Source: Oscillospiraceae bacterium
GTDB lineage: Bacteria; Bacillota; Clostridia; WRLR01
NCBI GenBank assembly: GCA_009777515.1
Contig: WRLR01000006.1
Location: 1,719-65,718 of the forward strand
Direction of reading: 5' to 3'
DNA length: 64,000 nt
Within the stretch, counting starts at the first letter, position 1. Each line of letters begins with the position of its first letter. Below, one piece after another: positions 14,229 to 50,639 of the stretch. The notes beneath the pieces are model-generated. The model did not search any database, was not told the origin of the DNA, and saw nothing but the letters and a program-made list of their open reading frames with translations. A program made the position numbers and the translations under genes.

Positions 14229-14231
14229 CCC

Positions 14232-15029: not shown

Positions 15030-15186
15030 AGAAAACCGTTATATATAATCTATAGCATATAATGACGGGAGCGGCTATATACAAAGCGGCGATATGCAGC
15101 GTCGGGAGCGACCACGTACAGCCATTATAAGCAAAGGCATGTAATAATGGGAACGGCGGATTTACGGGAGGACGGTGGCATACTGC

Positions 15187-15474
15187 ATGTTAATTGACGA
15201 CGAATTGATGAGTTATCTAGAAGATTTGTCATGCCTTTCGCTCACCGCAGAGGAAAAGCGGAGGATAGCAGTCGATCTGCAAAAGATACTCGAATATATG
15301 GAACGCCTTGAAAGGCTGGATACGGACGGCGTCCCAGAACGCAGCCACCCTTTTGACAATGTGAACGTATTTCGGGATGACAAGATCGGGACGCCTCTGG
15401 ATCGGGCGCTGATACTGAAAAACGCGCCGGACAGCGACGGCGTCATGTTTATCGCGCCAAAGACGGTCGAATAA
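15187..15474 (+). CDS. gatC: Asp/Glu-tRNA amidotransferase subunit C
   Basis: MLIDDELMSYLEDLSCLSLTAEEKRRIAVDLQKILEYMERLERLDTDGV is a GatC pattern. GTG 15175 is an alternative start. Confidence 0.8.
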   Translation: MLIDDELMSYLEDLSCLSLTAEEKRRIAVDLQKILEYMERLERLDTDGVPERSHPFDNVNVFRDDKIGTPLDRALILKNAPDSDGVMFIAPKTVE

Positions 15475-15644
15475 TCTGTGGCATTGCAATAAAGATAAAT
15501 TTGCCGGTAATAACGAAATAACCGGGAATAATGTATTAATTGCGGCTGTCGATTGTTACGACACTATATATTTTATCATTTACATTATTTTCATCTAAAG
15601 AATACATTAATTTCATCTAAACGAAACGAACGGAGGGCGGACGG

Positions 15645-32057: not shown

Positions 32058-32568
32058 CCCTCAGCAATAGAGCGCGCAGCCTTCTTTGCGTCTTATGCAA
32101 ACGGTCCCGGACAACAGTTTCGCTTTCCTTTAACGTCATTGCGGTTTTTTTATTCGAAAGCCCGTATCCGTAATTTAATAAAAAGATGTTTTTATTTTCG
32201 CCGCCGAGTTTGTTCACAACCTTGATAATATCGGAAGCCGACATGTCAAAAAGCGCCTCCTCTATGCCCCTGGCGTCGAACGGCTTTTTGTCCTGTGCAG
32301 GCGCGACATGCCGCGCCTCGTTTTCCATCAGCGCGTAAGCGCAGTTGCGGACGATCGTGACGGCAAAAACAATGGTTTGGCTGCTTCTCGGATCGTCCAC
32401 TTTGTCAATATTTTTCCATATATGGATAAACGACTCATATAGGGCCTTTTCCGCCTGCATCCGATCCTTTAAAATGCTGAACGCCTTATTTAGCATCAGA
32501 TGCCGGTATTCGCCGAATATATAGTCGATCTTGTCCCTATCGCTTTCCCTCCTGTGTGCCTCACGCAT
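32047..32568 (-). CDS. RNA polymerase sigma-70 family (ECF-type) sigma factor
   Basis: 173 aa. Region 2-like (YRHLMLNKAFSILKDRMQAEKALYESFIHIW) and region 4 HTH-like (LNYGYGLSNKKTAMTLKESETVVRDRLHKTQRRL). Confidence 0.75.
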   Translation of the reverse strand: MREAHRRESDRDKIDYIFGEYRHLMLNKAFSILKDRMQAEKALYESFIHIWKNIDKVDDPRSSQTIVFAVTIVRNCAYALMENEARHVAPAQDKKPFDARGIEEALFDMSASDIIKVVNKLGGENKNIFLLNYGYGLSNKKTAMTLKESETVVRDRLHKTQRRLRALLLRGGF

Positions 32569-34644: not shown

Positions 34645-36510
34645 TCAGTACGCGCCAGCTTTAAGTACCTCCAAATATGAATAATCGGGATCGAAATAAA
34701 TTTTAACCGGCTCCCCGTCTATATGCGTGTCAAACGCCGCCAGCCCGGCGCTGTCCAGCACAAACGCCGCGCCCCTGTTTGCAGGCGGCGCTGCAGCATA
34801 AGATATGACCTTTTCGACGCCCGGTTCAAGGCTCAGCCCTTTAACATAGGCGAACACTGTTTTGGTCTGCATGTCGAATGCGTCCATGCCTCCCCCGCCA
34901 GCGGCGCTAACGCCCCTTGCGATGTTATCGTTCCTAGCGATGCCATCGGCAACTGCGGCGCTTTCGACGCCATCTATGCGTCCGCCGCTCAATGTCAACT
35001 CAATGAAAGCGTTTTCAATGATGAGATCGGAGTTGTTAGTCAAACTTAGTTTCCCCGATATCAAAACATCGCCCACGCTGTGGTATGAGAGCACGTTGAC
35101 CGGAAACGGCGCCGGCGCCGGTATCGTTATATTCATTGGCGGCGTCACCGAATCGGGCGCCGAGGCAACAGAGCCCGGATTGGATCCTAAATCCGGGGCC
35201 ACATTGTCAGTTCCGTAGATTGCTATATCCGTGCTCTCCTCCAGCGGCGTCGCCATTACGATGTGCGGCGCGTCGGGGTTATCTATTGCTGCCCCTTCGT
35301 ATGCCGGCGCACCGGCTGCGCCTGCTTCGCCGATAAGTTCGCTGGACGTCATGCGTTCAGCCATTCTTTTTATATGGTTATTGTAATTGCTGTAGTGTTC
35401 CTGGCCTTCCAGCTTGTTTTCAGGATAGAGCAGCGCGAGCACCGCCGCCTCATACATTTTCGCCGTCGACGCAGAGCCCCGCCCGGCATCGTCGGCCGCG
35501 CCGCCGTTGACGGCATCGGCTTCGCGTTCCGAAATGCGCCTCGTGATATCCCCCAGGTTGTATAAGGCGGGCACAACCGTATAGACGATCACTTCCTGCG
35601 GCTGCTCGGGCGCCGTTCCCAATGTTCCGCCGGATATATATTTTACACTAAAATAACCGACTGCGCTAAATAACAATAAAATAGATAGGACGACAGCAAT
35701 CCGCTGGGCGCCAAACTGTATCCGCGATCCCCCAAAAAAAGGAACAGCGATTGCAAATGCACGCTTTTCGCCTGTCGGCGCTTTTATTGCCGAAGCGATG
35801 CCCGCCGCCCCCGCGTTACCGGCGCGATCATTGCCGGCGCCCCGATCATAAGCGGCAGCGTTTATATTACCATCCGTATTACTCGAACTGCTTATATTAT
35901 CCGCTTCATTTGCAATGCCAGGGACGCTAGCAGCGCCAGGGACGTCAGCGGCACCAGGGACGTCAACGGCGCCAGCGGCATCAATGGAGCCAGGCACATC
36001 AGCGGCGCCGGTTATATCAGCGACACCAGTGAAATCCGCAGTGCCAGAGATATCAGCGGCGCCGGTAAAATCCGCAACACTGGCAACATCTGTAACATCA
36101 GTGACATCAGTGACATCTGTAACATCCGTTATATCCGTCGCATTGGCGATATTTATATAGTTCGCTATGTCGTTTGGATCTATGATATCTACATCAACAA
36201 TGCCCGCCCTGTCCGCAGTCCCTGCACTGACCGCGCCGCCCGAGGCCTGCGCGGCTTGCGCGGCCTGCGCCGTCCTGGACATAAAGTCCGCCGCAGCGCT
36301 ATTGGGGCCTGCCACAAACGGCTCGGCGCCAAGGACCCTCTCCGGCAGCCCATCCGTTGCGGGCATGTCCGCGAGCAGATCCAGATCGCCGTTCATTATT
36401 TCATCGAGCAAACTCTTGAGATCGCCGGAATAGGCGTCATCGGACTGCGCCTGCGGATCCTCCGAACCATCGTTGCCCATCGTCGCTGTCATACTTAATT
36501 CATCCGCCAT
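34645..36510 (-). CDS. Hypothetical single-pass membrane protein with acidic N-terminus and T/D/V/A/G tandem-repeat region
   Basis: 621-aa ORF whose start overlaps the hemZ 3' end. Repeats include TDITDVTDVTDVTDVTDV and ADFTGAADISGTADFTGVADITGAADVPG. A TM helix is present (RIAVVLSILLLFSAVGYFSV). The C-terminal ~330 aa are non-repetitive, with no family recognised. Confidence 0.5.
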   Translation of the reverse strand: MADELSMTATMGNDGSEDPQAQSDDAYSGDLKSLLDEIMNGDLDLLADMPATDGLPERVLGAEPFVAGPNSAAADFMSRTAQAAQAAQASGGAVSAGTADRAGIVDVDIIDPNDIANYINIANATDITDVTDVTDVTDVTDVASVADFTGAADISGTADFTGVADITGAADVPGSIDAAGAVDVPGAADVPGAASVPGIANEADNISSSSNTDGNINAAAYDRGAGNDRAGNAGAAGIASAIKAPTGEKRAFAIAVPFFGGSRIQFGAQRIAVVLSILLLFSAVGYFSVKYISGGTLGTAPEQPQEVIVYTVVPALYNLGDITRRISEREADAVNGGAADDAGRGSASTAKMYEAAVLALLYPENKLEGQEHYSNYNNHIKRMAERMTSSELIGEAGAAGAPAYEGAAIDNPDAPHIVMATPLEESTDIAIYGTDNVAPDLGSNPGSVASAPDSVTPPMNITIPAPAPFPVNVLSYHSVGDVLISGKLSLTNNSDLIIENAFIELTLSGGRIDGVESAAVADGIARNDNIARGVSAAGGGGMDAFDMQTKTVFAYVKGLSLEPGVEKVISYAAAPPANRGAAFVLDSAGLAAFDTHIDGEPVKIYFDPDYSYLEVLKAGAY

Positions 36511-38242
36511 CGCAAAACCTGACCCTTTCCCGATTAGCTAAAAAATCTGTTTTTCTGTCAATCATTTCATCGTTACGGCTTATATATTCCAACAGATTTT
36601 TTACATTAAACACCCTTTCGATGCTCCCCGTTTCGTGGTTCACGAATTTCGATACCGCGCCCGCGCCCGCCGCGAACACGTCGACGCTGTCGGCCATTTC
36701 GTGTACATTGTAAGCGCATTCATGGCCCCTCGCCGCGAACCCTGTGTTGGCCAGGTTGCCAATGGTGTTTTTTTGCCGGTAAAGATAGTAGGGCTGCATT
36801 CCCAACAGCGTGGCCCGGCTCAGGGCGGCGTCCTGCATGGCGGCGGTCTCCCCCGCGTCCGGGCAAGTGTAGCGCCACCCAAACTCGTGTATGCGCGACG
36901 AGCGCTTCACGCAAAGGGTGTGGGCGGTGAAACTTTCGGGCCGCATCTCCGAAATGGCGTCGAGGGTATGCGCGAAATCGCGCAGCCCCTCGCCCGGCAG
37001 CCCGGCGATAATGTCCATATTTATATCGTCAAAGCCCGCCCTCCGCGCGAGCCAAAAAGCTTCGACCACATCATTTGGGGAATGCCCCCTCCCAATCAAA
37101 GCGAGCGTGCTCCCGTTCATGGACTGCGGGTTGATGCACAGCCGCAGCCTTCCGGCGCCCCGCGCGCCTTCGCGGATCGCGTCTAGCTTGTCGGCGTCGA
37201 TTGTGTCCGCCCTACCGGCCTCAACCGTGATCTCGTCGGGGCGGTTATGCGAAAACAGCTCGGCGATTCCGTTCAACAGCCACGATAGCTCGCGCCGCCC
37301 GAGCGCCGTCGGCGTGCCGCCGCCGACATACACCGCCCGGGGCCGGATCCCGGCGCCGTCCATGTGGCCCGCTATAAAACGCAGCTCCGCAAACAGTGCG
37401 CGTATATACTGTTCGGCATATTTATCCGCCTTATTGTGCGCGTCCGACGCGAACGAACAATAGGCGCATTTTGACACGCAAAACGGTATGCCGATATACA
37501 GGATGCAGTCTTTTTTTGCATCATAGCTCTGGATTATCGCGTCCTGATTCTCAACGATCCGCAGGCACAAATCCGACGTCTCCGACGGCACGTCGTATGC
37601 CCGCGCCATTTCGGCGGCCGCTTCGCCCTTGGAAAAGCCCGTCCGCATGAGATCCGCATAAAGCTTTATTGGCCTGACGCCGACCAGGGCCCCCCAAGGC
37701 AGGCGCCAACCTCCAAGCCCACCGGCGCCAACGCTGAAACCAGTGCTCATATCCTCTCCGACGCCTGCATCTCCGTCGGTATCTCTGCCAGCGCCCGCAC
37801 CATCTCCGGTGTCATCGCTTTGCGCCGATAGCGCCCGCGCTTTTAGCATGCGGTACAGCGCCATTTTTGCTTCATAGGCGATGCCGCCGCGCCCGGGCCC
37901 CAACGCGCCTTCCCGCTCGCAGAAGCCTGCAGACGCGCCCCCGCCCGCGCCGTAACGCAGCTCCAGAACACATCGGCCCTCCGTAAACGAAGCGGTAATA
38001 ACATCCGCCGCCGCGCTGCCGCCCCGCCCGCCCGTATCGCCAGGCTCGTTCAAATCGACAGGCTCGGGCGCGCGGCGGACCGCACTCGCCCTAGCAGCCA
38101 AACCGCCCCCGCCCGCCCCGCAGGCATTGTGCGGCCCGGGCGCGCGGCGGACCGCGCCACTGTAAAAAAGCTTTACGATATCATATATATGGCTATGGTA
38201 TTTTTCCGGCGATACGCGGAGGAGCACATCATTATCAAACAT
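36500..38242 (-). CDS. hemZ: HemZ-like oxygen-independent coproporphyrinogen-III oxidase family radical SAM protein
   Basis: Radical SAM motif (YIGIPFCVSKCAYCSF), HemN-like core, and a long N-terminal extension typical of HemZ, here expanded by G/A-rich insertions. Confidence 0.75.
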   Translation of the reverse strand: MFDNDVLLRVSPEKYHSHIYDIVKLFYSGAVRRAPGPHNACGAGGGGLAARASAVRRAPEPVDLNEPGDTGGRGGSAAADVITASFTEGRCVLELRYGAGGGASAGFCEREGALGPGRGGIAYEAKMALYRMLKARALSAQSDDTGDGAGAGRDTDGDAGVGEDMSTGFSVGAGGLGGWRLPWGALVGVRPIKLYADLMRTGFSKGEAAAEMARAYDVPSETSDLCLRIVENQDAIIQSYDAKKDCILYIGIPFCVSKCAYCSFASDAHNKADKYAEQYIRALFAELRFIAGHMDGAGIRPRAVYVGGGTPTALGRRELSWLLNGIAELFSHNRPDEITVEAGRADTIDADKLDAIREGARGAGRLRLCINPQSMNGSTLALIGRGHSPNDVVEAFWLARRAGFDDINMDIIAGLPGEGLRDFAHTLDAISEMRPESFTAHTLCVKRSSRIHEFGWRYTCPDAGETAAMQDAALSRATLLGMQPYYLYRQKNTIGNLANTGFAARGHECAYNVHEMADSVDVFAAGAGAVSKFVNHETGSIERVFNVKNLLEYISRNDEMIDRKTDFLANRERVRFCDGG

Positions 38243-38306
38243 AATATGTTATATTTCAGGCTGATATTTTATACGCCAACAAAGCGCAGGGCGCGCTATT
38301 CGCGCG

Positions 38307-38756
38307 TCAAAACGCCTTCTTGGAATCGAGGAGCAGCGTCACGGGCCCGTCGTTTTCAATCGTCACAGCCATATCGGCCTGAAACACCCCCGAAACCACC
38401 GGCAGGCCCGCGAGGGCGCAGCGCTCTGTGAACGCATCATACAGCCCGCGCGCCCGATCGGTGGGCATTGCCGCGTCATATGATGGGCGCATGCCCTTCC
38501 TGCAGTCGCCGTACAACGTGAACTGCGAAACAATCAGCAGCGAGCCGCCCACCTGGCTGACGTTCAAGTTCATTTTGCCGTCGCCGTCCGAAAATACCCG
38601 GAGGCCCAAGATTTTGCCCGCAAGCCATTCGACGTCCCAATCGCCGTCGTCTTTGCCCACGCCGACAAATATGCACAGGCCCTGCCCTATTTCGCCCCTG
38701 AGCTCGCCGTCGGCCACAACGGCGGAGCGCGCCACCCGTTGTACAACCGCCCTCAT
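38307..38756 (-). CDS. dtd: D-aminoacyl-tRNA deacylase
   Basis: MRAVVQRVARSAVV...GQGLCIFVGVGKDD...SQFTLYGD...GRRPSY-type motifs, 149 aa. Confidence 0.95.
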   Translation of the reverse strand: MRAVVQRVARSAVVADGELRGEIGQGLCIFVGVGKDDGDWDVEWLAGKILGLRVFSDGDGKMNLNVSQVGGSLLIVSQFTLYGDCRKGMRPSYDAAMPTDRARGLYDAFTERCALAGLPVVSGVFQADMAVTIENDGPVTLLLDSKKAF

Positions 38757-38774
38757 TTGATACCCCGTGTAATT

Positions 38775-41105
38775 TTAATGAATGCTGCGCGTGACCCTGA
38801 TTACGCTGTCGATGCCGTTGATTTTTCTGATAATTGTGTCCAACTGCGTTTTATCGACAATCTCCAAAATCAGGTCGATCATGGCCAAATTATCGCGCGA
38901 GACCTTGGCGTTTATATTTTTGATCGGTATCATAAGCTCACCGATGGAGCTGGTTATATCGGATATAAGCACCGGCCTGTCGTTCGCGACGATCAATATA
39001 GCCGCCTGGTACGTCTCGATGACCTGGTCGTACCAGGACACCTCTACCAGCCTGTTGTCGTCGTCGACGGAGTTTACGACGTTGACGCAGTCGAACCTGT
39101 GCACGGAAACCCCCCGCGACCTTGTTATATAGCCGACTATCGGATCGCCGGGGACCGGGTTGCAGCAGTGCGACGTCCGCACGAGGCAGTTGGCAACCCC
39201 CCGGACGAGTATTTCGCTGTCCGCCTGCCTTTTTTTGCGGCCCGCAACCTTTTTTAGCTCCTGCACGCCCTGCTGCAGGCTGTTCTGTTTTATAAATTCG
39301 GTAACGGTTTCCGGCGGTGTTTTGCTAACCGCGTTGTATTCCTCCACGAGCCGAAACACCAGCTTTGTGCTGGAAATGCCATTGTATCCGACTGCGGAGT
39401 ACGCGTCGTCGAGGGCGGCAAAATTATAGCGCTTTATCAGGCGATCCACCAAATCGGCCCTCAGGAGCTGGGACGGCAAGTAACCCTGCCTCTTAATTTC
39501 CTTGTCCACCAGCTCCTTGCCCCGGACGATGTTCTCCTCCCGGTTTTCGCGCTTGAACCATTGGCGGATCTTGCTCCTGGCTTGCCCGCTCTTCACGATA
39601 TCGAGCCAGTCGCGGCTGGGCCCGTGCTCGTTGACAGAGGTAATGATTTCCACAATGTCCCCGTTTTGCAGCGTGTAGGAGATGGGCACAATCCGGCCAT
39701 TGACGCGCGCTCCGTTCATGCGGTTGCCTATGGCGCTGTGGACGCGGTATGCAAAATCTATCGGCGTCGAGCCGTTCGCAAGGGCAAAGACGTCCCCTTT
39801 CGGCGAAAATGCAAAAACAGTATCGGAAAACAGGTCGATCTTTAAATCCTCGACAAAATCATCCGAGTCCTGAACGTCGCGCTGCCATTCAATAAGCTGC
39901 CTGAGCCAGGCCAATTTTTGGTCGTCCTCATTGAGGTCAAAGCCGAGATCGAGCGCCCCGTCCCCAGCCCCTTGCCCCGTGGGCGCGGCGCCCTGCGCGG
40001 CCCCCGGCGAGTAACCGGATACAGGCCCCGACCTGTCCCTGGGCGAGCCTGTGGAAGCGCTTTCCTTGTACTTCCAATGCGCGGCTATCCCGAACTCAGC
40101 GACGCGGTGCATGTCCCATGTCCTAATCTGCACCTCGAACGGAGCGCCCGACTCCCCGATCAGCGTCGTATGCAGCGACTGGTACTGGTTCGGCTTGGAA
40201 ATCGCGATATAATCCTTGAAACGACCCGGGACGGGTGTATACTCGTTGTGCGCAGTCCCGAGCGCCGTATAACATTCGCTCACAGTATTGACAATGATAC
40301 GCAGGGCATAGATGTCGTATATTTTATCGAGCGGCTTGTCCTGGTTGCGCATTTTGCGGTAAATGCTGTAGAGGTGCTTCATGCGGTATTCGATATGGGC
40401 GTTTATGTGCAGTTCTTCGAGCCTGCTGCCCAAAAGGTGCGCGACGTCCGATATCGGCGCCTCGCGCTCTACCTGGTTCACGGACAGCAGTTCGGTCAGC
40501 TCGTCATATGCCTCCGGCTCCAGATAGCGCAGGCACAGATCCTCAAGTTCGCTCTGGACGCGGAAAATACCCAGCCTGTTCGCCAGGGGCGCGTATATTT
40601 CGAGGGTCTCCTTGGATTTTATGATCCTGTGCTCGGGCGGCATATCGTAAAGCGTGCGCATGTTGTGGAGGCGGTCGGCCAGCTTTATGAGGATCACCCG
40701 GATGTCCTTCGACATCGCGAGGATCATTTTCCTGATGTTTTCCGACTGTTGCTCCTCTATCGACGTATAGGGGATGTTTTCCAGCTTAGTCACTCCGTCG
40801 ACAATTTGGGCGATCGTGTCCCCAAACATTGCGGACAGATCGTCCAGCGTGACGAACGTGTCTTCGACGACGTCGTGCAGCAGACCGGAAACAATGGAGC
40901 CTATATCGAGCTCGAGCCCTGCCAGAATTAGCGCGACATTAAGGGGGTGCATTATGTACGGTTCGCCGGAGACGCGGTTTTGGCCGCTGTGCGCCTCACA
41001 GGCGCACTCATAGGCGCGATCCAAAAGCTCATAGTCGAAACTTTGGGCGTATTTACCGATTTCCACTTTCAGTTGTTCATATTCGGTATGCAATTCTCGC
41101 ACCAA
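38775..41105 (-). CDS. relA: Bifunctional (p)ppGpp synthetase/hydrolase RelA/SpoT homolog
   Basis: HD domain (HSGQNRVSGEPYIMHPLNVA...HDVVEDT), synthetase domain (YKDYIAISKPNQYQSLHTT), TGS and ACT regions. TTG/GTG start. A low-complexity insertion sits between the synthetase and TGS domains. Confidence 0.95.
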   Translation of the reverse strand: MVRELHTEYEQLKVEIGKYAQSFDYELLDRAYECACEAHSGQNRVSGEPYIMHPLNVALILAGLELDIGSIVSGLLHDVVEDTFVTLDDLSAMFGDTIAQIVDGVTKLENIPYTSIEEQQSENIRKMILAMSKDIRVILIKLADRLHNMRTLYDMPPEHRIIKSKETLEIYAPLANRLGIFRVQSELEDLCLRYLEPEAYDELTELLSVNQVEREAPISDVAHLLGSRLEELHINAHIEYRMKHLYSIYRKMRNQDKPLDKIYDIYALRIIVNTVSECYTALGTAHNEYTPVPGRFKDYIAISKPNQYQSLHTTLIGESGAPFEVQIRTWDMHRVAEFGIAAHWKYKESASTGSPRDRSGPVSGYSPGAAQGAAPTGQGAGDGALDLGFDLNEDDQKLAWLRQLIEWQRDVQDSDDFVEDLKIDLFSDTVFAFSPKGDVFALANGSTPIDFAYRVHSAIGNRMNGARVNGRIVPISYTLQNGDIVEIITSVNEHGPSRDWLDIVKSGQARSKIRQWFKRENREENIVRGKELVDKEIKRQGYLPSQLLRADLVDRLIKRYNFAALDDAYSAVGYNGISSTKLVFRLVEEYNAVSKTPPETVTEFIKQNSLQQGVQELKKVAGRKKRQADSEILVRGVANCLVRTSHCCNPVPGDPIVGYITRSRGVSVHRFDCVNVVNSVDDDNRLVEVSWYDQVIETYQAAILIVANDRPVLISDITSSIGELMIPIKNINAKVSRDNLAMIDLILEIVDKTQLDTIIRKINGIDSVIRVTRSIH

Positions 41106-41460: not shown

Positions 41461-42420
41461 ATGCATAAAGAGCATGAGGGGCAGGACGGGCAGAATTGGC
41501 AGGACGGGCAGGGCGCGAATGATGGGCATGAGGGGCATGAGGGGCAGGACGGTCAGGGTGTGAATGACGAGCATGTGAGATATGAAGAACATGGCGGGCA
41601 GGGCGCGAATGACGGTCATGTGAGATCTGAAGAGAATTTCGGGCATGCAGAAACGGCGTGCAGCGAAACGCTGCCGCCCACTTTCCCGCCTACCCCGCAT
41701 GGGCGCGTATGGCAGATCGACGCCCTGCGCGGGACCGCCATGATCCTGATGACTGTGTTCCACGCCCTTGTGGACGTGCGCGACTTCTTCGGGTTCGCCG
41801 ACGTCCGGTATTACGAGCCCCCGCTTATGTACATAGGGAGGAGCTCAGCCATCCTTTTTATGTTCGTGTCCGGCATCAGTTGCCGTTTTTCAAAAAGCAA
41901 CATCAAGAGGGGCGCCAGGGTCATACTGTGCGGCATGATAATCACTGCGGCGACGCTTGTTGCCGTCCGCGATCTGTATATTAGATTCGGCATCCTGCAT
42001 TTTTTAGGCGCCGCGATGATCATAATCGGCCTGTTCGAGCGACTGGTGACAAAAGAGCGGTTGCGCCAGTTGGCCATGTGGATCGCTTCCCCCGCTTCGC
42101 TGATTATTGGAAGGATTTTTAGCCAAATGCGCACGACACTGCCGTTTTTATTTGCTTTTGGGTTAATTACCGCAGATTTCGTTTCATACGACTATTACCC
42201 GATCTTTCCATGGATCGGCATTGTGTTCGCAGGCTACGCGGCTGGCCGGTTCGTCGTCGCCAACCGCGCCAAGCTGTCTACCATGCGCGGCAACCGCGCC
42301 ACATCGGCGCTGTGCGCCCTGGGGAGGGTATCGCTCATATACTACATCTTGCACCAACCCGCCCTATTCGCCCTCTTTTTCGCCATTGACTTTTTTCGTC
42401 GCATAGCGCTCAACCTGTAG
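41461..42420 (+). CDS. DUF1624 (heparan-alpha-glucosaminide N-acetyltransferase-like) membrane protein with His/Gly/Gln-rich repeat N-terminus
   Basis: RVWQIDALRGTAMILMTVFHALVDVRDFF is the DUF1624 signature, followed by multiple TM helices. ATG 41461 lies 6 nt after AAGGA. In-frame GTGs at 41561/41576/41618 are alternative starts that would remove the repeat region. Confidence 0.65.
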   Translation: MHKEHEGQDGQNWQDGQGANDGHEGHEGQDGQGVNDEHVRYEEHGGQGANDGHVRSEENFGHAETACSETLPPTFPPTPHGRVWQIDALRGTAMILMTVFHALVDVRDFFGFADVRYYEPPLMYIGRSSAILFMFVSGISCRFSKSNIKRGARVILCGMIITAATLVAVRDLYIRFGILHFLGAAMIIIGLFERLVTKERLRQLAMWIASPASLIIGRIFSQMRTTLPFLFAFGLITADFVSYDYYPIFPWIGIVFAGYAAGRFVVANRAKLSTMRGNRATSALCALGRVSLIYYILHQPALFALFFAIDFFRRIALNL

Positions 42421-43563
42421 GATCACCCCCTGCGCAAGCGCGTCCCTGATGCACCGATCGATCTCGCTACTGATCTCTGCGGATATCTCATTTCGAGGCA
42501 TAACAATCACCAGCCGCCTTACCAATATTTCTTCTGGCAAAATGACGATGCCCGCGCTCCCGTACGGGGCCGGCTGCCCCTGATAGTCCCTTAACTGGCC
42601 AACATATCCATCAATCACCCTGCCAATGCCTACGGGGGTCTGGTATGACGCGGCGGTCGTATCAATGCTGTGGATGGCCGTCGCCACGCCATCGTTGAAC
42701 GAAGCCAGTACATTGAACCCCTTTGGGAGGTTGGCATGGAATATTTCCTGGATGCGGTCGCCCCGCTCGAAGTTGTGTAGCGACCATATATCATCCTCTG
42801 CCCATATGGGCCCCCTGCCAGCCGCATTTTGGCTGGCGCCGAACAGCCATGCCCGTGAGCAGGCCTCCTGCTCTATTGTTATCCGGGAGAAAGGCTTGAT
42901 AGGTATGGGCACATTGAAAGCGTACCTGACATTTATTTTGACGTCCTCTCCACCGTCCGACAGATATGATGATCGTGCATAATCCAGGCCCTGCGCCCCG
43001 CCCTCGATATTTAGCCCCGCCAAGGCCCCAGGCGCGGGCCCGGCTTCGACGCCCAATGCGGGCAATGTGCCATAGTTAAAATACTTACTTGTCACCAGAT
43101 CCGCGTATTGGCAAAATAGCGCCCCACTTATCCGGTCAGTCAATGCAGACGACGCAATCGACAGTTGCTGGAACGCTTCATCACCGGCGCCCAAAGGCAG
43201 CCATTCGACAAACTGCGCCGATTTTATCGCAATGCCCCCGGCACTCTCCGCCCCGAGGCCTGATAGCCCCTGTGCGCCGGGCGGCGCATCCGGCGCGCCA
43301 GAAAGCCCATATAAATAGCTGGCGCCTGCGATCTCGAGCGACGCCTGGCTGATTGCGTGCTGCACGCGTTCGTGAACCTGTACCGCCCTCAGCAAAAAAG
43401 CGATGGCAACCAATATGCAAAAGTATAGCGGGAGGGAAATGGCAGCCTCCAAAGTCAAAGCGCCCTGTTGCCCATGCGCACCATGCGCTATGCGCCATAA
43501 TGTTTTACAGGATTTTCCAATTTTAAGCATGTCGCAGGCTCCAACCATAAATCGTGAACCCAT
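42364..43563 (-). CDS. TadE-like N-terminal pseudopilin-type helix fused to a ~330-aa extracytoplasmic region with an unassigned C-terminal globular domain
   Basis: The N-terminus QQGALTLEAAISLPLYFCILVAIAFLLRAVQ matches the TadE-like pattern (G-x-x-x-x-E + hydrophobic helix). Its ATG shares one nucleotide with the upstream TAA (TAATG). The 3' end overlaps the convergent DUF1624 gene by 57 nt. Confidence 0.6.
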   Translation of the reverse strand: MGSRFMVGACDMLKIGKSCKTLWRIAHGAHGQQGALTLEAAISLPLYFCILVAIAFLLRAVQVHERVQHAISQASLEIAGASYLYGLSGAPDAPPGAQGLSGLGAESAGGIAIKSAQFVEWLPLGAGDEAFQQLSIASSALTDRISGALFCQYADLVTSKYFNYGTLPALGVEAGPAPGALAGLNIEGGAQGLDYARSSYLSDGGEDVKINVRYAFNVPIPIKPFSRITIEQEACSRAWLFGASQNAAGRGPIWAEDDIWSLHNFERGDRIQEIFHANLPKGFNVLASFNDGVATAIHSIDTTAASYQTPVGIGRVIDGYVGQLRDYQGQPAPYGSAGIVILPEEILVRRLVIVMPRNEISAEISSEIDRCIRDALAQGVILQVERYATKKVNGEKEGE

Positions 43564-46256
43564 TAAAACAAGTCGCGCACGGTTACCGCCCGAAGCAAAT
43601 GCCTGTTATCAGCGGTCTTTAAATATGTAGGCATAAATGGCGCAGTCATAAACAGATAGTTGACCGTCGCCGTCAGTTCGCCTTGCACTTCACAATATAG
43701 GTCGCCCACTTTAAGGCCCCGCCCAGCGAATTTTGTGTTGATTTCAACCAAGTCGCATATGCGGACCAGCTTCGTCTGCCTCGCTTCCGTCATCATAAAC
43801 AACCTCAAATAATCTATGTATGACCATTTTTGTTGTTCCTCGGTTTTTGGCTGGCCTTCCGCACCTACGCCTATAATGGTTTCCCAGTCCCCCGCCAGTT
43901 TCATGAACGGCGCCCTTTTGCCATCCAATAAATTTTCGACATCCAAAATCGCCTCTTTCATGCTCCAAGCCATCAGTACAAGCTCAGCCACGACAGGCGC
44001 CAGCGCCTCCGACGCCCATTGCGGCAGCATGGCCGCCGCTGTGTCCCTGGCAAACTGTATCTTGCGCGGGTCCGAATAAACATGGATAAAGTTCATGGCG
44101 TACCTGGCCGTCAAAATCTGGGCCTTGGTCCAAAACATATTGCTCGATTGTTTGTCACAGCCGTGCAGTATGTACTCCGCTTCCGCGTCAAAAAATGCAA
44201 CTTTCGACGGTTTCGCGACGCCCGCCCATCTGTAATCGTCATCAACATAATTGTCAAAAATACTTAAAGCGTATTCGCCGACATATTGCGCGTCGCGAAG
44301 GTTTTCAATACCGACGCCCAGCAGCTCGCCGATGTCTTTAATGACGACCAGCGCGTTCGACGAATATTCATTATTGAAATCAAACGGGTCGTAGCCGATC
44401 GCCCCATTTTCCACAAGGCTAATGTATTGATTTGTCTGCATATCGAAACCTTGGGCGTTTGAGACCGGCAGCACTTCATATTGGGGCTCAATGACAGGGG
44501 GCGCGGGGCTCAGGCCGGAGGCAAACAGCACCTGCGTCCGCTCCCACCACGGCCTTTGGTTGCGTGACGGCAGATCGTGAACGTCGACACCTATGTCCGA
44601 CAGTTTTTTGTCATTACCTACATGGGCAGGGCTGCCCATACCGCCGCCGAGGAGTTCGGTTATGCGGTCGTCTACGAACTCCCTCGGATCGGCAAATCCG
44701 CTCCTCGGGCTGATTTTCATATAATCAAAACCGGCAATATAATTATACGATGAAATATCCGGCGCGAGCCTCTTTCGTATCGACGCCCCGTCGATGCGCC
44801 CCCCGAGTGGCGAGTAGCCCAGCAAGTCGCGCCTTAAGCTTTCCATTTCGTCCAGGGCGCGGGATAAAACATCCATGTTCGCCGCCAGCGCCCCTGATAT
44901 GCCAACCGCGCCAATGGCGTCATCCAGCAGCGCCTTCGCGCGTTCGGCCTCGCCCCGCAAGGGGGCTGCAAAAGCCATTTCCATATCATCTACGTTGTCA
45001 TTAACGCTTTTGTCTACGTTATCTGCGCTATCATTAACGCTTTTGCTTACGTTATCTGCGCTGTCATTAATGCTTTTGCTTACGTTATCTGCGCTGTCAT
45101 AAGCGCTGTTATTTACTTTATCATATGCATTATTAAATGAGACATCATTTACATCGTTATATAAGTTAACATCTATGTTTAGCTTAGCTATGCTGTCATC
45201 TAGCATTTCATATATCAGCATGGCATCATCGACAGCGGCGACGATATTTTCCACACAGACGGCCGCTCCCCTGTTGGATTCATAGAAAGCCCTCGTCTCG
45301 CGTTCAATCAGCTTGTCCAAAGCCTCCTCCAGCTCCCACCTGGCTTCGTTCAACTGATCCCTTTCTTCCCTGTCGGCCTCGGGATCGGGTGTATTTGAAC
45401 GGCTTCGGGCCAACTGTGCGTAATAATTGCTCCGCGACACCTCAACATAATAATCGTAGCGCCCTGCGATATCGGTAGCCAGGGCCTGCCTGGCGGCATT
45501 CCTGTTGAAATTAAGTACATACCTGTCATAAACGCCGGTCGTGCCTGTGTCGCCATATAAATAGTCGCGTAGGTCGGCCTGCTCCCAACCGATTTCGGCG
45601 AGCTTGCGGTTAATCTCTATATTAATCTGCGCGGCGCCCGCCATCTTCGCCGCGCTCGCCGCCAAAAGGGCGAAGTCCCCGGCGCCGGTCGCCAGCGCTG
45701 CCGGCGCCCTGTATTTGACGTATTCCAGGATTTGCCGCTCGATCACCTCCAAATCCGCGAGCGGCTTCGCCGTATGCAGGTCTGCCCGCTCTATGCCATA
45801 ATCGTACAGGCGCGCAGGCCGATCCCCCGCGCTGCCAAAAGGCTCATTTCCTGCCAAGCCCCGTTCTAGGCCGGACGGCAGGTTTTTTTCGATATATTCA
45901 TTAAGGACAGAGGCGTCGGGTGTTGGCATATGGATAGCGAACAAACCATATTCGCCATATAAATTGGATTCATACCCGGCAAGCACGGACACGGCGGCGA
46001 TGTCCAGCGCCCTGGCCGCCTGGTTCTGCGCCGCGCCAAGCCGCGCTATGTCCACCAGCAGGCAAGTAAGCGCGACGACAGCAAACATGACAATCGCAAA
46101 GAATATCGACAGCCCGCCCCTGTCACACATGCGGAATCTCGAAATATTGGGAAGCCAGCCCCAGTCCCCTTTTCGGAACCTCGCACTATTGGGCAGCCCG
46201 CCCCTTTCTCCCTTGCGTAATTTTGCGAAATTAACATGAGAGTTGCTATTTATCAA
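43563..46256 (-). CDS. TadG/Tad_N-like large membrane-anchored protein (possibly the DUF5702-type family seen in Clostridial Tad-like loci)
   Basis: DRGGLSIFFAIVMFAVVALTCLLVDIARLGAAQNQAARALDIAAVSVLAGY resembles the Flp pilus-assembly TadE/G-like N-terminal (Tad_N) pattern. The protein is up to 897 aa. TTG 46256 overlaps the upstream stop (TTGA), and ATG 46130 is an alternative start. It contains 42-bp and 33-bp in-frame tandem repeats. Confidence 0.6.
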   Translation of the reverse strand: MINSNSHVNFAKLRKGERGGLPNSARFRKGDWGWLPNISRFRMCDRGGLSIFFAIVMFAVVALTCLLVDIARLGAAQNQAARALDIAAVSVLAGYESNLYGEYGLFAIHMPTPDASVLNEYIEKNLPSGLERGLAGNEPFGSAGDRPARLYDYGIERADLHTAKPLADLEVIERQILEYVKYRAPAALATGAGDFALLAASAAKMAGAAQINIEINRKLAEIGWEQADLRDYLYGDTGTTGVYDRYVLNFNRNAARQALATDIAGRYDYYVEVSRSNYYAQLARSRSNTPDPEADREERDQLNEARWELEEALDKLIERETRAFYESNRGAAVCVENIVAAVDDAMLIYEMLDDSIAKLNIDVNLYNDVNDVSFNNAYDKVNNSAYDSADNVSKSINDSADNVSKSVNDSADNVDKSVNDNVDDMEMAFAAPLRGEAERAKALLDDAIGAVGISGALAANMDVLSRALDEMESLRRDLLGYSPLGGRIDGASIRKRLAPDISSYNYIAGFDYMKISPRSGFADPREFVDDRITELLGGGMGSPAHVGNDKKLSDIGVDVHDLPSRNQRPWWERTQVLFASGLSPAPPVIEPQYEVLPVSNAQGFDMQTNQYISLVENGAIGYDPFDFNNEYSSNALVVIKDIGELLGVGIENLRDAQYVGEYALSIFDNYVDDDYRWAGVAKPSKVAFFDAEAEYILHGCDKQSSNMFWTKAQILTARYAMNFIHVYSDPRKIQFARDTAAAMLPQWASEALAPVVAELVLMAWSMKEAILDVENLLDGKRAPFMKLAGDWETIIGVGAEGQPKTEEQQKWSYIDYLRLFMMTEARQTKLVRICDLVEINTKFAGRGLKVGDLYCEVQGELTATVNYLFMTAPFMPTYLKTADNRHLLRAVTVRDLF

Positions 46257-47086
46257 TGGAGCAGCCCCCCGATATAGCTTCTAATGTGCCCAATTATGTT
46301 GGCAAAATTGTCCCCAGCGCCGGCCTGCCCCTGCGTCGCTTCATGTTCTTTGCTCTCTATCTCTATAACATAGCCGATACAGCGGATGTTTTCAGCAAAG
46401 TCGGGTATGAGCGATTTGGCTGCGTATGATCCGGAAAATACACTGCCATAGCCGAACTCGGCCATGACATTGCGGTTAGGCAATAAAGTCCTGCCATGCA
46501 GCCCGACAGTCAGCGTTTTACCGAATATTCCGCTCTGATACGCTGCCCCGCCCTGCGCCTGAGTGTAGCCAGTCAACGAAATAAAATCGTGGCGCGTATC
46601 CGCCATATCGGCTGCGAACCTGATTTTCTCCCCCGCACCACTGTCATATAAGCGGTGGTAAAGGCCGCCGTTAACAAAAACGCCGCCGCCCATAAAACCG
46701 CCACTACGGCTAGTATTATCATTACTATTAATACCGTCATTACCATTAGTACTGCCACTATTGCTAGCACCACCACTATTGCTAGAGCCGCCACTACCGC
46801 CGACACCGCCCATATCGCCAACGTTGGCACCGTCATAATCGGCGCCGCCTACAGCGCCAACGTAAGCACCGCCAATTTCGGCGCCACCGCCGCGCCACGC
46901 CACCGCCGCACGCTGTGCCGCATATACCGACGCGGATTGCAATTGAGCCTGGCCAAACAGCAGCAGTACAATATATATAGATAATCCGACCACAAAAACG
47001 ACAAGCGGCACTACAATCGCGCCCTCCAGCGTGATAGAGCCCCGTTCCGAGGCAAGCCAAAATTTATGCATACATTTTAAATACAT
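46253..47086 (-). CDS. TadE-like protein with G/S/N-rich low-complexity linker
   Basis: SERGSITLEGAIVVPLVVFVVGLSIYIVLLLFGQAQLQSASVYAAQRAA is a close TadE-like N-terminal pattern. The start is ambiguous (ATG 47137, GTG 47113, ATG 47086 or ATG 47071), and GGAGG lies at 47122-47118. Confidence 0.6.
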   Translation of the reverse strand: MYLKCMHKFWLASERGSITLEGAIVVPLVVFVVGLSIYIVLLLFGQAQLQSASVYAAQRAAVAWRGGGAEIGGAYVGAVGGADYDGANVGDMGGVGGSGGSSNSGGASNSGSTNGNDGINSNDNTSRSGGFMGGGVFVNGGLYHRLYDSGAGEKIRFAADMADTRHDFISLTGYTQAQGGAAYQSGIFGKTLTVGLHGRTLLPNRNVMAEFGYGSVFSGSYAAKSLIPDFAENIRCIGYVIEIESKEHEATQGQAGAGDNFANIIGHIRSYIGGLLH

Positions 47087-47155
47087 CTTCCGCGCCTGTG
47101 CCAAACTAAACACTAAGCCTCCATAAATTAACATCATATTGCTGTTTATATCATT

Positions 47156-47184
47156 ATTGTAAATTATTGGATTTACATTGTCAA
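47156..47184 (-). promoter_or_regulatory. Near-consensus sigma-70 promoter TTGACA-17 nt-TACAAT driving the three TadE/TadG-like genes
   Basis: The minus strand reads TTGACAATGTAAATCCAATAATTTACAAT (-35 at 47184-47179, -10 at 47161-47156). The GGAGG SD follows about 35 nt downstream. Confidence 0.55.
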
Positions 47185-47751
47185 GCATAAATAGAAATAT
47201 TTTACATTTTATTATCATGATTGAATGACTGGAATAATACTTTTATATGATTAAACATATAATGTGGCAAAAATAGACTAAGCATAGCAGAGGATATTAA
47301 ACGGCATGGATATAATAAATATTTTTGTGCATTGTCGGAAACAGAATACGAAATGGCGAAAATGCTGTACCAAACAGGAAAATCGTTAGATTGTATAATA
47401 TTATACAAAACGCGGGCACGCATAAACCAACCAAAGGTTTACTAAAAAATTATTTATAAACGAGAAACCAACAGTGTGCTGCTCTGGATGCAGATAACTG
47501 ACAACGCATTATATTTTAAAGCAAACTTGTTCCATATAAAGTATTACTCAGTTAATATATCGGCTTGTTCTGTTAAAACTAAAAATGCCATAGCATCTAC
47601 AAATGAATGTGGTTTTTTTGGATTATATGTACCGCATATGCCTTATCACATTTACAACAACGAATACAAACCTTGCATTTTTCACGGCTACTATTTTAGA
47701 AAATGGATAATGAAGATTGGTGCATGCTGAGGAATTTGATAGTTTTGGAGC

Positions 47752-47896: not shown

Positions 47897-48171
47897 TAAT
47901 CACCGATTTTCGCATAATAACTGATGTAATGAATTTTTATGAATACTATCATACCAAACGCTGTAAATCCAAGGCTTACAAAGGCATACAGTCTCAGTTA
48001 TTAATCAAAAACATTACATTGAATGACGCTAATACCATTTATTATAACATGTCAAATTTGGTTCGTTAATGCTTTACTGAGAACATTATATCAAAAAACC
48101 ACTGAAAACAGGCTATTATGTGCTTGTAATAATAGATATAAAATTTACGATTAATTTTTAACATTATATTA

Positions 48172-48200
48172 TTGACATTATAAACGTCATATAGTATAAT
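48172..48200 (+). promoter_or_regulatory. Perfect-consensus sigma-70 promoter TTGACA-17 nt-TATAAT immediately upstream of the transposase ATG
   Basis: TTGACATTATAAACGTCATATAGTATAAT. The -10 ends 6 nt before ATG 48207 and there is no SD, which implies a leaderless or near-leaderless mRNA. Confidence 0.5.
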
Positions 48201-48206
48201 TGTTTT

Positions 48207-49925
48207 ATGAGCGATGCTAGTTTTTTTCAAGATCCGAAGGCAGAATGGCAGCGTCGGTACGAGGCCATAAGAGCGGCCGTTGTCGATAGATTGCCTGACA
48301 AAATCATTGCGGAACGTTTCAGGTATAGCCCTGCCTATGTCAGCCAACTGCGGTATAAATTCCGCCACGGCATGATCGAGTTTTCCGAACCGGCTGGTGA
48401 TAAACAGGCCCCAAGGCGCAAGGTGGACAAAGCTACACGTGAAAAAATCATTGCTTGGAGGAAAAAGGAGCTGTCCGCTGGCGAAATAACCGAGTTGATC
48501 CTGCTGGAGGGGGTCGAGCTCTCTGTCCGCACTGTTGAAAGGGTGCTTGCCGAGGAGGGTTTCGCAAAGCTTCCCCGCAGGGCGGCGATGCGCATAGGCC
48601 GCACGGTAAAGGGCGCTGAAATACCGGAGCGCTCAGAAACAATCAGATTGGGGCCATTGGCCGGGGCACGGTATGAGTCGGACAGCGCCGGGGTGTTTCT
48701 GTTTGCCCCCTTTTTGGCGCAGCTGGGCATTGGCGGCATAATAAAAAAAGCCAGGCTGCCCGGGAGCCGCGCAATACCGGCGATGAACTATTTTTTGTCC
48801 GTGCTGGCGCTAAAGCTACTCGGCACGGAGCGGTATGCCCATGTGGGTGATCATTCATTTGATCCGGGGCTTGGGCTGTTTGCGGGGCTTAATGTGCTGC
48901 CCAAATGCACCGCGCTTTCTTCTTATTCATATTCACTTGATCAGGCCCATATAAACCGCCTTCAGGAAGCGTTTGTTGGCAGCGCGCACCGGCTGGGCAT
49001 CTACGACAAAAGCGCGATCAACCTTGACTTTCATACCGTCCCCCATTATGGCGACGAATCGGTCCTGGGCGAGCATTGGAATGGCGCCAGGAACAAGCGG
49101 ATGAAAGGCGCTTTGACCATGTATGCCCAGGACTCAGAAACAAAACTCATCGTTTATACGGCTGCCGACATACAGCATAGTGAAGCGGACGATCAGGTCC
49201 TCAGCTTCGTGCCCTATTGGGCGAAGATAAGCCGTCAGATGAATTCAATGTTGATCTTCGACAGCAAATTCACAACATATCGGAATCTGTCTGAACTCAA
49301 CAGCCAGAACATAAAGTTTGTCACGCTGCGCCGCCGTGGCCAAAAGCTGCTTGAGGAAGCCGGCAGGATCGAATCCTGGGCAAGGATCAGCATACCGCAT
49401 GAAAAGCGCAAATATCCCAACCCATTTATCCATGAATCCTTTGAAGCGTTGAATGGATATGATGGAATGATACGCCAGATAATCCTGAAGGGGAACGGGC
49501 ATGAAAGGCCGGCATTTCTTATTACAAACGACTTCGAGTCGCCCGCCGAGCTTCTTGTTTCGAAATATTCTTGCCGATGGCATGTGGAAACAGGTATCTC
49601 GGAAGCCGTGAAGTTTTTCAATGTCAATGCGCTTTCATCGCCCATGCTTTTGAAAGTGCATTTTGATATGGTTATGACTATGGTCGCCGACACCCTGTAC
49701 TGGCGGCTGGCACAAAACTTGCGCGGATTTGAAAAATGCGACGCCAACACAATTTTTCGCAATTTTGTTCATGGCAAAGGATATGTTAATATAAATAACA
49801 ACGAAATTGTAGTCACATATCCAAAGCGCGCACATAACCCAATATTAAGGGCTGTAAACTGGCAGCAAGCACATCGAACCATACCGTGGTTAGATGATGT
49901 TAACCTAACTTTTGTATTTAAGTGA
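48207..49925 (+). CDS. DDE transposase (IS4-superfamily-like) with N-terminal HTH
   Basis: 572 aa. HTH-like N-terminus (REKIIAWRKKELSAGEITELI), candidate DDE residues (INLDFHTVPHYGDES; MLIFDSKF; YSCRWHVETGISEAVKF, a YREK-like motif). The IS family is not determined. Confidence 0.75.
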   Translation: MSDASFFQDPKAEWQRRYEAIRAAVVDRLPDKIIAERFRYSPAYVSQLRYKFRHGMIEFSEPAGDKQAPRRKVDKATREKIIAWRKKELSAGEITELILLEGVELSVRTVERVLAEEGFAKLPRRAAMRIGRTVKGAEIPERSETIRLGPLAGARYESDSAGVFLFAPFLAQLGIGGIIKKARLPGSRAIPAMNYFLSVLALKLLGTERYAHVGDHSFDPGLGLFAGLNVLPKCTALSSYSYSLDQAHINRLQEAFVGSAHRLGIYDKSAINLDFHTVPHYGDESVLGEHWNGARNKRMKGALTMYAQDSETKLIVYTAADIQHSEADDQVLSFVPYWAKISRQMNSMLIFDSKFTTYRNLSELNSQNIKFVTLRRRGQKLLEEAGRIESWARISIPHEKRKYPNPFIHESFEALNGYDGMIRQIILKGNGHERPAFLITNDFESPAELLVSKYSCRWHVETGISEAVKFFNVNALSSPMLLKVHFDMVMTMVADTLYWRLAQNLRGFEKCDANTIFRNFVHGKGYVNINNNEIVVTYPKRAHNPILRAVNWQQAHRTIPWLDDVNLTFVFK

Positions 49926-49980
49926 ATTATTAATCATTATATCGTATGACGGTTAAAAACATTGCGAAAATCGGTGTTTA

Positions 49981-50639
49981 AATGACATTTTTTTGCTTGA
50001 TCCTATTCCAAGCAAAATGCGCGGCTACTCACAACTGTCCAAAACCCTTCGCCAGGATGCTTCAAACATCGCGGGGGTGATTGCTGCTTTTCCTGATGTT
50101 GAAAAATTGCATATAGAAAAAGCGATAATGGAATATGTAAAAATTCTTCCAGAAAAAGATTTAAAACGCGTATATACGGAAACCGTTGGGGCCTTTGGCA
50201 ATGACGCTATGCTCATGTGCGAAGAGGGATGGGAAAACACGAACACTAACATTGTCGACGCCAGCGGTATGTCTGACGGAACCTTGCGATATTTGGCTAT
50301 AGTCGCGGCTATATATACAAGGCCGGAAAATAGCCTTTTTATAATAGAAGAAGTTGACAACGGTTTGCACCCCTCGAGGGCGAAAGACCTGCTTTTCATG
50401 TTAAAACAGTGGGCGCGGAAAGGAAAGTGGATGTATTGATAACAACGCACAATCCAGCTATATTGGATGCGGCAGGTCATAAAATGGTGCCTTTTATCTT
50501 TTATGTGCATAGGGACGGCGAGACCGGTTCCAGCTTGGTTACGCCTTTAGACGAAATTGGAACGCTTCCGAAGATGATGGCTTCCGGTTCGCTGGGGGAC
50601 ATTTCAACAGACAAAAGCATAGAGAAAGCATTATATTGA
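49981..50639 (+). pseudogene. 3' part of an AAA-type (AAA_21/AbiEii-like) ATPase gene, N-terminally truncated by the IS and frameshifted near 50410-50440
   Basis: The frame opens right at the IS end (..FLLDPIPSKMRGYSQL...DGTLRYLAIVAAIYTRPENSLFIIEEVDNGLHPSRAKDLL, a Walker B-like region). It continues in another frame with VDVLITTHNPAILDAAG, the typical ABC/AAA_21 C-terminal motif. Confidence 0.6.

Follow-up and report, generated by a model that had tools for sequence, protein, structure and literature searches.

A detached three-gene set of TadE/TadG-like proteins in an Oscillospiraceae genome, probably the minor-pilin module of a Clostridial Tad pilus

Three pilin-like genes in a window of housekeeping genes

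The stretch of an Oscillospiraceae bacterium genome that we analysed (64 kb of the 67-kb contig WRLR01000006.1; hereafter the window) carries three co-oriented minus-strand open reading frames (ORFs), P1, P2 and P3, which together span 42364-47218 (Table 1). These genes, the trio, encode two TadE-like pseudopilins (P1 and P3) and a large TadG-like protein (P2), and we consider it probable that they are the minor-pilin set of a Tad pilus whose machinery is encoded elsewhere. The first-pass annotation, made from the sequence letters, had described them as an orphan operon without pilus machinery nearby. That absence was borne out across the 64 kb, since a Pfam scan of 43 window ORFs found no T2SSE, T2SSF, TadZ-like, Flp1_like or Peptidase_A24 domain, and tblastn with TadZ, TadA, TadB, TadC, Flp and A24 queries returned no match in the window. 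The other window genes are housekeeping genes (relA, dtd, radical-SAM enzymes, H+-PPase, hydrogenase, ftsQAZ, arginine and purine synthesis), and the 3' neighbour of P3 is a convergent HGSNAT acyltransferase gene.

Both P1 and P3 begin with a prepilin processing motif that runs into a hydrophobic stretch. The Gly at -1 and Glu at +5 are invariant in the P1 alignments A2 and A6 and in the P3 alignment A1 (G23 and E28), and in the P3 alignment A4 the Glu is present in 68/68 sequences and the Gly in 63/68. Glu at +5 is required for packing type IV pilins into the filament. The pseudopilin signature had been claimed for all three proteins; it holds for P1 and P3 but not for P2, whose family N-terminus (GGLSIFLAIV…LLVDIARV…ALD.AA.S.LAGY) has an invariant Gly and lacks E(+5). 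P2 is a large protein with a single N-terminal hydrophobic helix. Two profile checks proposed with the first-pass annotation gave opposite results: DUF5702 matches P2 strongly, over residues 651-843, and is carried by 11/11 P2 relatives, whereas DUF4320 was not found. The AlphaFold2 (AF2) model of P2, with a mean predicted local distance difference test score (pLDDT) of 63, is mostly helical, and places a long N-terminal helix (residues 5-60) before extended helical hairpins and a helical C-terminal domain. A fold search of this model against the PDB gave nothing significant (best E 0.075), and a match of P2 to anti-phage ZorA was rejected as noise (14.8 bits against a cut-off of 190).

The three ORFs are all present where the first-pass annotation had placed them. 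The stop/start overlaps that it reported (TTGA at 46253-46256 and TAATG at 43561-43565) are likewise in the sequence, but only if the longest ORFs are chosen. The longest P1 ORF is 46253-47218; its start candidates are a GTG at 47113, with GGAGG 4 nt upstream, and the previously annotated ATG at 47086. P2 may start at TTG 46256, with a 47-aa leader, or at ATG 46130, with a 4-aa leader, as in the 855-aa database version; the choice is ambiguous because a 42-nt repeat duplicates the leader region. For P3 the longest ORF is 42364-43563 (399 aa) and the 388-aa database version runs from ATG 43530. Since that ATG has GGAG 7 nt upstream, P3 probably starts 30 nt past the P2 stop. Whichever starts are used, the tight packing of P1-P2-P3 is also found in the loci of relatives. 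The trio proteins carry local expansions as well: the Asn/Asp/Ser-rich (N/D)SADNVSKSV insert is specific to the window's P2 and found in no homologue, and P1 has a lineage-specific Gly/Ser/Asn-rich insert that holds an 18-nt x 2.3 repeat at 46755-46796. At the other end of the trio, the 3' end of P3 (42364-42420) overlaps the 3' end of the convergent HGSNAT-type gene by exactly 57 nt, and this overlap is conserved in two relatives (L001, 13548-13604; L002, 9737-9793).

Table 1. Positions of the trio genes and of the features assigned to them in the window
Feature	Position	Strand	Basis and details
P1, TadE-like minor pilin	46253..47113	-	ORF; ~277-286 aa
P2, large TadG-like/DUF5702 protein	43563..46256	-	ORF; longest = 897 aa
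P3, TadE/F-like minor pilin with C-terminal nuclease-fold domain	42364..43530	-	ORF; 388 aa
P1 prepilin processing motif G↓SITLE (ERG↓SITLE), G(-1)/E(+5)	47024..47041	-	alignments A2, A6
P3 prepilin processing motif G↓ALTLE (QQG↓ALTLE), G(-1)/E(+5)	43447..43464	-	alignment A1
P2 N-terminal hydrophobic TadG-like segment, GGLSIFFAIVMFAVVALTCLLVDIARLGAAQNQAARALDIAA	45987..46118	-	conserved across P2 family
P2 DUF5702 (PF18960) domain	43728..44306	-	Pfam; E 8.6e-39, 133.6 bits, cut-off 26
P3 CdiA-CT EC869-like PD-(D/E)xK-fold domain (PF21111)	42412..42735	-	Pfam; 31.8 bits, cut-off 27
σA-type promoter-like site TTGACA-17-TACAAT	47156..47184	-	11/12 consensus positions
Tandem repeat, 42 nt x 2.3, repeated …FRKGDRGGL… units, P2 leader/start	46111..46205	-	Tandem Repeats Finder (TRF)
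Tandem repeat, 33 nt x 4.1, encodes (N/D)SADNVSKSV insert in P2	44988..45122	-	TRF

The trio with and without a tad operon across Clostridia

The survey of relatives, restricted to one genome per GTDB species, returned 130 relatives and retained 80 loci; tblastn was used to sort the 86 loci that had a P2 match. At 30 loci the trio is attached, that is, part of an operon of the order TadZ-TadA-TadB-TadC-Flp-P1-P2-P3-…-A24. At 39 it is detached, with at least 6 kb of upstream flank free of tad genes, and at a further 19 no core was seen and the upstream flank was too short to judge. Attached loci include those of Maledivibacter, Wukongibacter, Lachnospiraceae and Roseburia; the detached group includes Oscillospiraceae, Hungateiclostridiaceae, Acetivibrionales and unclassified Bacillota. 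Adjacency to flp and tadA/B/C is present in the 30 attached loci and missing in the window and the 39 detached ones; it describes where the genes lie, not what the proteins are. The closest relatives, L001 and L002 (44-58% identity), and a more distant one, L003 (26%), have the same three-gene stand-alone cassette, flanked by unrelated housekeeping genes and free of insertion sequences (IS). Stand-alone trios without an IS also occur in L008 and in about 35 further species. Being an "orphan" is a conserved condition of the trio, shared by dozens of species.

The attached operons belong to Clostridia more distant from the window. Three of them (L004-L006) encode, in order, TadZ-like, T2SSE, TadB, T2SSF, Flp1_like, P1 and DUF5702 proteins, two further proteins and Peptidase_A24, and that of L007 runs T2SSF, Flp1_like, P1, DUF5702 and TadE+PF21111, with the full trio directly after Flp1_like. 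In alignments, P1 is the orthologue of the gene immediately behind flp in L004 and L007, both full operons, and attached operons show the order P1-P2-P3 after flp. All three trio genes are orthologues of the post-flp genes of complete operons. In a positive control, an Flp ORF (…EEDG↓xGTVEIVIIIAVLVG…) adjoins P1 in 24/28 attached loci. The same search gave one match in the 39 detached loci, and that single match was not Flp-like. The class III signal has been conserved in the detached copies as judged from their ORFs: 75/77 P1 and 72/73 P3 ORFs, from attached and detached loci alike, have G-x4-E followed by a hydrophobic helix.

One origin initially proposed for the window locus, truncation by an IS-associated rearrangement, is refuted by the IS-free stand-alone trios of L001, L002, L008 and the roughly 35 further species and by the constant position of the trio in the large detached clade described below; the split is an old, inherited operon fission. 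The first-pass annotation had also foreseen that in relatives the trio might form the last genes of a contiguous tad operon, one simply cut here by the IS. Relatives do show the contiguous operon, but no IS cut lies behind the separation. Comparison across the species surveyed shows the stand-alone arrangement to be ancient and inherited.

In a neighbour-joining (NJ) tree of P2, one small detached clade unites the window with L001, L002, L008 and L010, a further, large detached clade is made up of about 45 other loci, and the attached operons are basal or fall in other clades. Loci of the large clade keep the trio at a constant chromosomal position, with a DUF4080 radical-SAM gene about 236 nt upstream (35 loci) and, on the downstream side, a TrpB-like gene and prkA-DUF444-spoVR (12-18 loci). 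A link to sporulation was considered and set aside, as it consists only of the prkA-spoVR adjacency in the large clade and those genes are not beside the window trio. The detached set of Vallitalea (L080, 9322-15782) has the order 176-aa gene, P2, P3, 198-aa gene and P1-like gene.

A search with TadA from an attached Oscillospiraceae operon recovered CpaF proteins in cultured Acetivibrionales and Hungateiclostridiaceae, and several of the corresponding cores lack the trio's large genes. In L088 (Acetivibrio thermocellus-type) and in L090/L091 (A. mesophilus) the order is recJ-apt-relA-dtd-MBL-radical SAM-tadZ-tadA-tadB-tadC-flp-P1-A24, and P2 and P3 are lacking from these core loci. In Clostridium thermosuccinogenes (L089), tadZ-A-B-C-flp is followed by an unrelated, unannotated 637-aa gene (13625-15538), and the operon is without P1-P3 and without an A24 gene. 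A. mesophilus N2K1 carries its DUF5702 gene on contig RLII01000091 (L073), preceded by its own AT-rich leader, and its core operon on another contig, RLII01000014; in an Acetivibrio metagenome-assembled genome (L058) the DUF5702 gene stands alone between transporter and WG-repeat genes. The arrangements are thus graded, from the full operon, through a core with P1 and a solo P2, to the stand-alone P1-P2-P3 trio with a presumed matching core.

FHA/DUF6382 and WG_beta_rep proteins recur beside Clostridial tad operons (L004, 14849-17715; L088, 14861-16423; L090, 14764-16341), and a WG-repeat gene adjoins the solo DUF5702 gene in L058 (2641-4299). These proteins may be accessory or regulatory partners of the pilus.

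A probable minor-pilin set served in trans, and rival readings

The locus is a variant of the known Tad system and not a new system. The trio probably encodes the minor pilins of an Flp1-type Tad (type IVc) pilus of Clostridia, as a tip or priming set that is served in trans. A satellite module of this kind was among the three origins proposed in the first-pass annotation and is the best supported of them, by the orthology to post-flp genes, the kept prepilin signal, the cores without DUF5702/P3-type genes and the A. mesophilus genome with both such a core and a separate DUF5702 gene; a distinct system built on the TadE fold has no positive support.

How such a module might work can be outlined from established type IV pilus biology and from work on Myxococcus tips (PMC12075869). 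The ancestral order would have been tadZ-tadA-tadB-tadC-flp-P1-P2-P3-(prepilin peptidase), with the trio directly after flp, and an old fission would have left the trio as a separate unit under its own σA-type promoter. P1 and P3 would be cleaved after G(-1) by an A24 prepilin peptidase encoded elsewhere, and the three N-terminal helices may bundle into a complex on a TadB/TadC/TadA platform that is likewise encoded elsewhere. This complex would prime the polymerisation of Flp and, as Flp is added beneath it, would reach the pilus tip. There, the helical/DUF5702 region of P2 and the nuclease-fold domain of P3 may serve as binding modules that set binding specificity, rather than as an enzyme.

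Several observations weigh against the module served in trans. For the source genome, no tad core, Flp pilin or prepilin peptidase was found within 64 kb of the 67-kb contig. None of the genomes examined combined a core with a detached full trio; a core and a detached gene share a genome only in Acetivibrio, where P2 alone is detached and P1 stays with the core. The resolution of the P2 tree fits one or two fission events alike. The window proteins also fall short of the profiles that would name them. Pfam TadE scores 14.5 bits (E 0.039) against P1 and 21.4 bits against P3, the second just under the gathering score of 22.9 bits, and PF13400 (Tad_N) has no match to P2 at E<=1. In their families, TadE is matched at E<=0.01 by 13/21 orthologues of P1 (best 3.4e-10) and by 53/68 members of the P3 family (best 2e-9). 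The Tad_N-like N-terminus ascribed to P2 fares similarly: PF13400 is missing from the window protein but is weakly matched by 6/11 relatives (best E 3e-4), and the TadG-like hydrophobic stretch is there.

It is possible, but in our judgement unlikely, that the Tad core has been lost and that the trio was exapted to a type IVa/Com machine, using its PilD/ComC peptidase, or to a membrane-anchored surface complex. Such a history would fit the lack of any tad gene within up to 10 kb of the 39 detached loci and in the 64-kb window, the trio's own promoter and stable chromosomal position, the failure to recover a second DUF5702 locus from any detached-trio genome among the 80 loci kept, and the proximity of the sporulation-associated prkA and spoVR to the trio of the large clade. 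However, every attached trio is in a Tad operon and never in a type IVa or Com one, and the cores without DUF5702/P3-type genes in related orders are the complementary half expected from a split. Moreover, E(+5) is strictly conserved and is needed for filament packing, which favours incorporation into a filament.

DUF5702, PF18960, PF21111, Flp1_like and DUF4320 had no mention in the literature searched. We know of no experimental studies of Clostridial Tad (type IVc) pili. A review of monoderm type IVc pili covers Actinobacteria only (PMC6916266). The TadE/F/G proteins of Aggregatibacter, Pseudomonas and Caulobacter resemble the trio in comprising two pseudopilins with class III signals and a large single-pass TadG-like protein, and the likeness extends to gene order, as the trio of relatives comes directly after flp in tadZ-A-B-C operons whose last gene encodes an A24 peptidase. 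Unlike them, the trio is from monoderm Clostridia, its large subunit is a DUF5702 protein and not a VWA-type TadG, its pseudopilin P3 bears a PD-(D/E)xK toxin fold, its genes lie apart from the machinery, and the window proteins do not reach the TadE and Tad_N cut-offs of Pfam.

The closest precedent is the set of KilL/KilM/KilN tips of Myxococcus xanthus, TadE/F/G-like trios of which several are encoded away from the kil machinery (PMC12075869). There the large TadG-like member exposes a variable domain, the prepilin peptidase is needed, and the trio primes polymerisation (PMC12075869). The likeness to the window is one of gene set and location, three genes apart from the machinery, and the Kil tip genes are reported as restricted to Myxococcota (PMC12075869). 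The separate Myxococcus trios are extra paralogues beside an in-cluster set, whereas the window trio could perhaps be a sole copy, left by an operon split. Tad components that act in trans from separate loci are also known in monoderm bacteria: in Micrococcus luteus the TadE/F of tad-1 are needed for the Flp pilus of tad-2 (PMC4322843), and in Bifidobacterium breve the prepilin peptidase is encoded at a separate locus (PMC6916266). Both are Actinobacteria, with minor pilins of about 150 aa that lack DUF5702 or nuclease-fold domains, and the second M. luteus locus has its own ATPase and platform genes, unlike the window trio.

If the trio is a minor-pilin set, a definite function can be given to DUF5702, that of the large, TadG-like minor pilin in Flp1-type Tad operons, and the idea of an interchangeable Tad tip is extended to Gram-positive anaerobes. 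Annotators and secretion-system finders that depend on co-localisation would miss a detached trio or call it an orphan. The relatives found include cellulolytic Acetivibrio, uncultured Clostridiales, Oscillospiraceae and Hungateiclostridiaceae.

The toxin-fold domain of P3 and the DNA around the trio

The extracytoplasmic region of P3 had been deemed unassignable. Its N-terminus is TadE-like, as proposed, but the C-terminal PF21111 domain had been overlooked. The AF2 model is confident over this domain (pLDDT 84-92), and the sole significant PDB neighbour of the P3 model in Foldseek is the toxin CdiA-CT EC869 (4g6u_A, E 2.2e-7, probability 1.0). A profile of the C-terminal domain alone matched the YpIII CdiA-CT nuclease (4zqu_A, E 6.3e-13); a PDB search with whole P3 gave only a weak N-terminal match to archaeal flagellin (E 0.33). 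The P3 family has 1480 representatives at 50% clustering (E<=1e-10), most of equal length, and PF21111 is present in 66/68 sampled members. A widespread TadE-type minor pilin thus bears a CdiA-CT-derived fold. The nuclease-fold domain occurs in 34/37 detached and 8/21 attached P3s and, being found in both, predates the operon fission.

The catalytic residues of the toxin, E177, D198, S209 and K211 (PMC9086364), were mapped onto 68 family sequences through the 4zqu_A profile alignment and the published active site. D198 corresponds to P3 position 276, where Ala (25) or Ser (22) is found in 47/68 sequences, Asp in 8 and an acidic residue in 9, and where the window has Ala276. S209 corresponds to position 285, mostly Met or Leu in the family and Ala285 in the window. 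At position 287, for K211, 49/68 have Lys (34) or Arg (15), six have His, and the window has His287. The counterpart of E177, at about position 255, lies outside the aligned region and is approximate; Glu is found there in 31/68 and as Glu255 in the window. Within the aligned block, Asp at the D198 position is rarely paired with Lys at the K211 position. Other residues are conserved in the family, among them W249, R256, G257, N267, P269, S288, D290, Y296, K/R338 and P345.

Because catalytic positions are replaced and no conserved immunity-gene candidate of at least 120 aa follows P3 across the detached loci, the P3 C-terminal domain is most likely a toxin-fold homologue and not a canonical nuclease. 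An active toxin of contact-dependent inhibition (CDI), which PF21111 might suggest, is set aside as the default reading, given the missing catalytic residues and immunity gene. Compared with the Zn-dependent DNase domains CdiA-CT EC869 (TA271) and YpIII (4G6U, 4ZQU), P3 has the same fold and the motifs G.NLP..F, KSLD and VIPxN. It differs in the change of D198/S209/K211 to Ala/Ala/His, in the lack of any CdiA/CdiB context in the window and of an immunity gene, and in its fusion to a prepilin-type N-terminus instead of a CdiA filament.

It seems improbable that P3 is an active extracellular nuclease, a DNA receptor or a contact-dependent toxin carried on a Tad pilus. The homology of its C-terminal domain to the EC869/YpIII DNase domain invites the idea, as do the conserved polar residues R256, N267, S288, D290, Y296 and K/R338 and the activities of Tad pili elsewhere, natural transformation in M. 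luteus (PMC4322843) and contact-dependent killing by the tips of Myxococcus (PMC12075869). It is opposed by the Ala or Ser that replaces D198 in 47/68 family members, the hydrophobic residues in place of S209, the window's His for K211, the merely approximate E177 counterpart (31/68), the rarity of Asp together with Lys at the D198 and K211 positions, and the lack of a conserved immunity candidate in the detached loci. We regard it as similarly doubtful that this unstudied Clostridial minor-pilin family, of about 1500 clusters at 50% identity, shows a CDI nuclease-toxin domain recruited to the tip. If the P3 domain does retain nucleic-acid binding or cleavage, or an effect on neighbouring cells, these Gram-positive Tad pili would be devices for DNA capture or contact-dependent effector devices, and a detached trio with its own promoter would then allow a cell to refit a constitutive pilus machine as needed.

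The near-consensus promoter previously placed at 47184-47156 was recovered. By itself the match is weak evidence, as this AT-rich DNA has many promoter-like sites (22 against an expectation of 11.9). The CTTGACA…TTACAAT element does, however, align with the corresponding region ahead of the orthologous trios of L001 and L002. The leader of the trio had no riboswitch or other RNA element in Rfam at E<=1. The AT-rich DNA and the IS reported upstream are also there: GC content is 33.7% at 47-48 kb, and an IS with a DDE transposase (48207-49925) spans 47897-49980, with candidate 18-nt terminal inverted repeats (47897-47914 and 49963-49980, 94% complementary) whose positions put its end about 700 bp from the trio promoter. 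Although this IS, the AT-rich DNA and a truncated AAA_21 fragment beyond the IS could suggest that the trio is the decaying, stranded tail of an IS-cut tad operon, this is very improbable, given the IS-free orthologous trios in L001, L002, L008 and dozens of other species, three intact ORFs with conserved motifs, a promoter element common to the window, L001 and L002, and the distance of the IS end from that promoter.

Upstream of the detached trio in the large clade lies another conserved element, ACCAAAATATGGTGTATWAT, followed by (A/G)TGTAAAATATGG(T)AT. It is found 55-270 nt upstream of P1, usually as the sole occurrence in about 20 kb, in L003, L012, L014, L016, L017, L019, L022-L024, L027, L029-L031, L034, L035, L042, L043, L045, L046, L050, L061, L067 and L068. 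Three complete operons (L055:3450, L074:4663 and L076:4619) have the same 12-mer 90-130 nt ahead of tadZ. The shared motif ATGGTGTATWAT is specific to the P1-upstream region of the large detached clade, and three attached operons also have it upstream of tadZ; the clade of the window lacks it, and it fits no assignable known sigma-factor consensus. The element may be a promoter or regulator site common to tad cores and detached trios.

Directly upstream of the DDE transposase gene stands a σ70-like promoter that matches at 12/12 positions (48172-48200). Immediately beside the IS lies a fragment (148 aa) of an AAA_21 (AbiEii-like) ATPase gene (49993-50439), which suggests that the IS disrupted or displaced that gene.

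Two further features of the window concern its other genes. The relA-dtd-radical SAM block (34645-41105) also precedes the Acetivibrio tad core (L088, L090 and L091; 3400-10000). A 621-aa protein with no Pfam match (34645-36510) occupies the position of the Acetivibrio tadZ after the radical-SAM gene, and recJ and apt are missing upstream of the window relA, where the trio and the IS now sit. At 29079-32568 on the minus strand, a gene for a σ70-region-2 protein (173 aa) overlaps the start of one for a 992-aa VWA/YfbK-like protein, a pair that looks like a sigma factor and its membrane-anchored partner.

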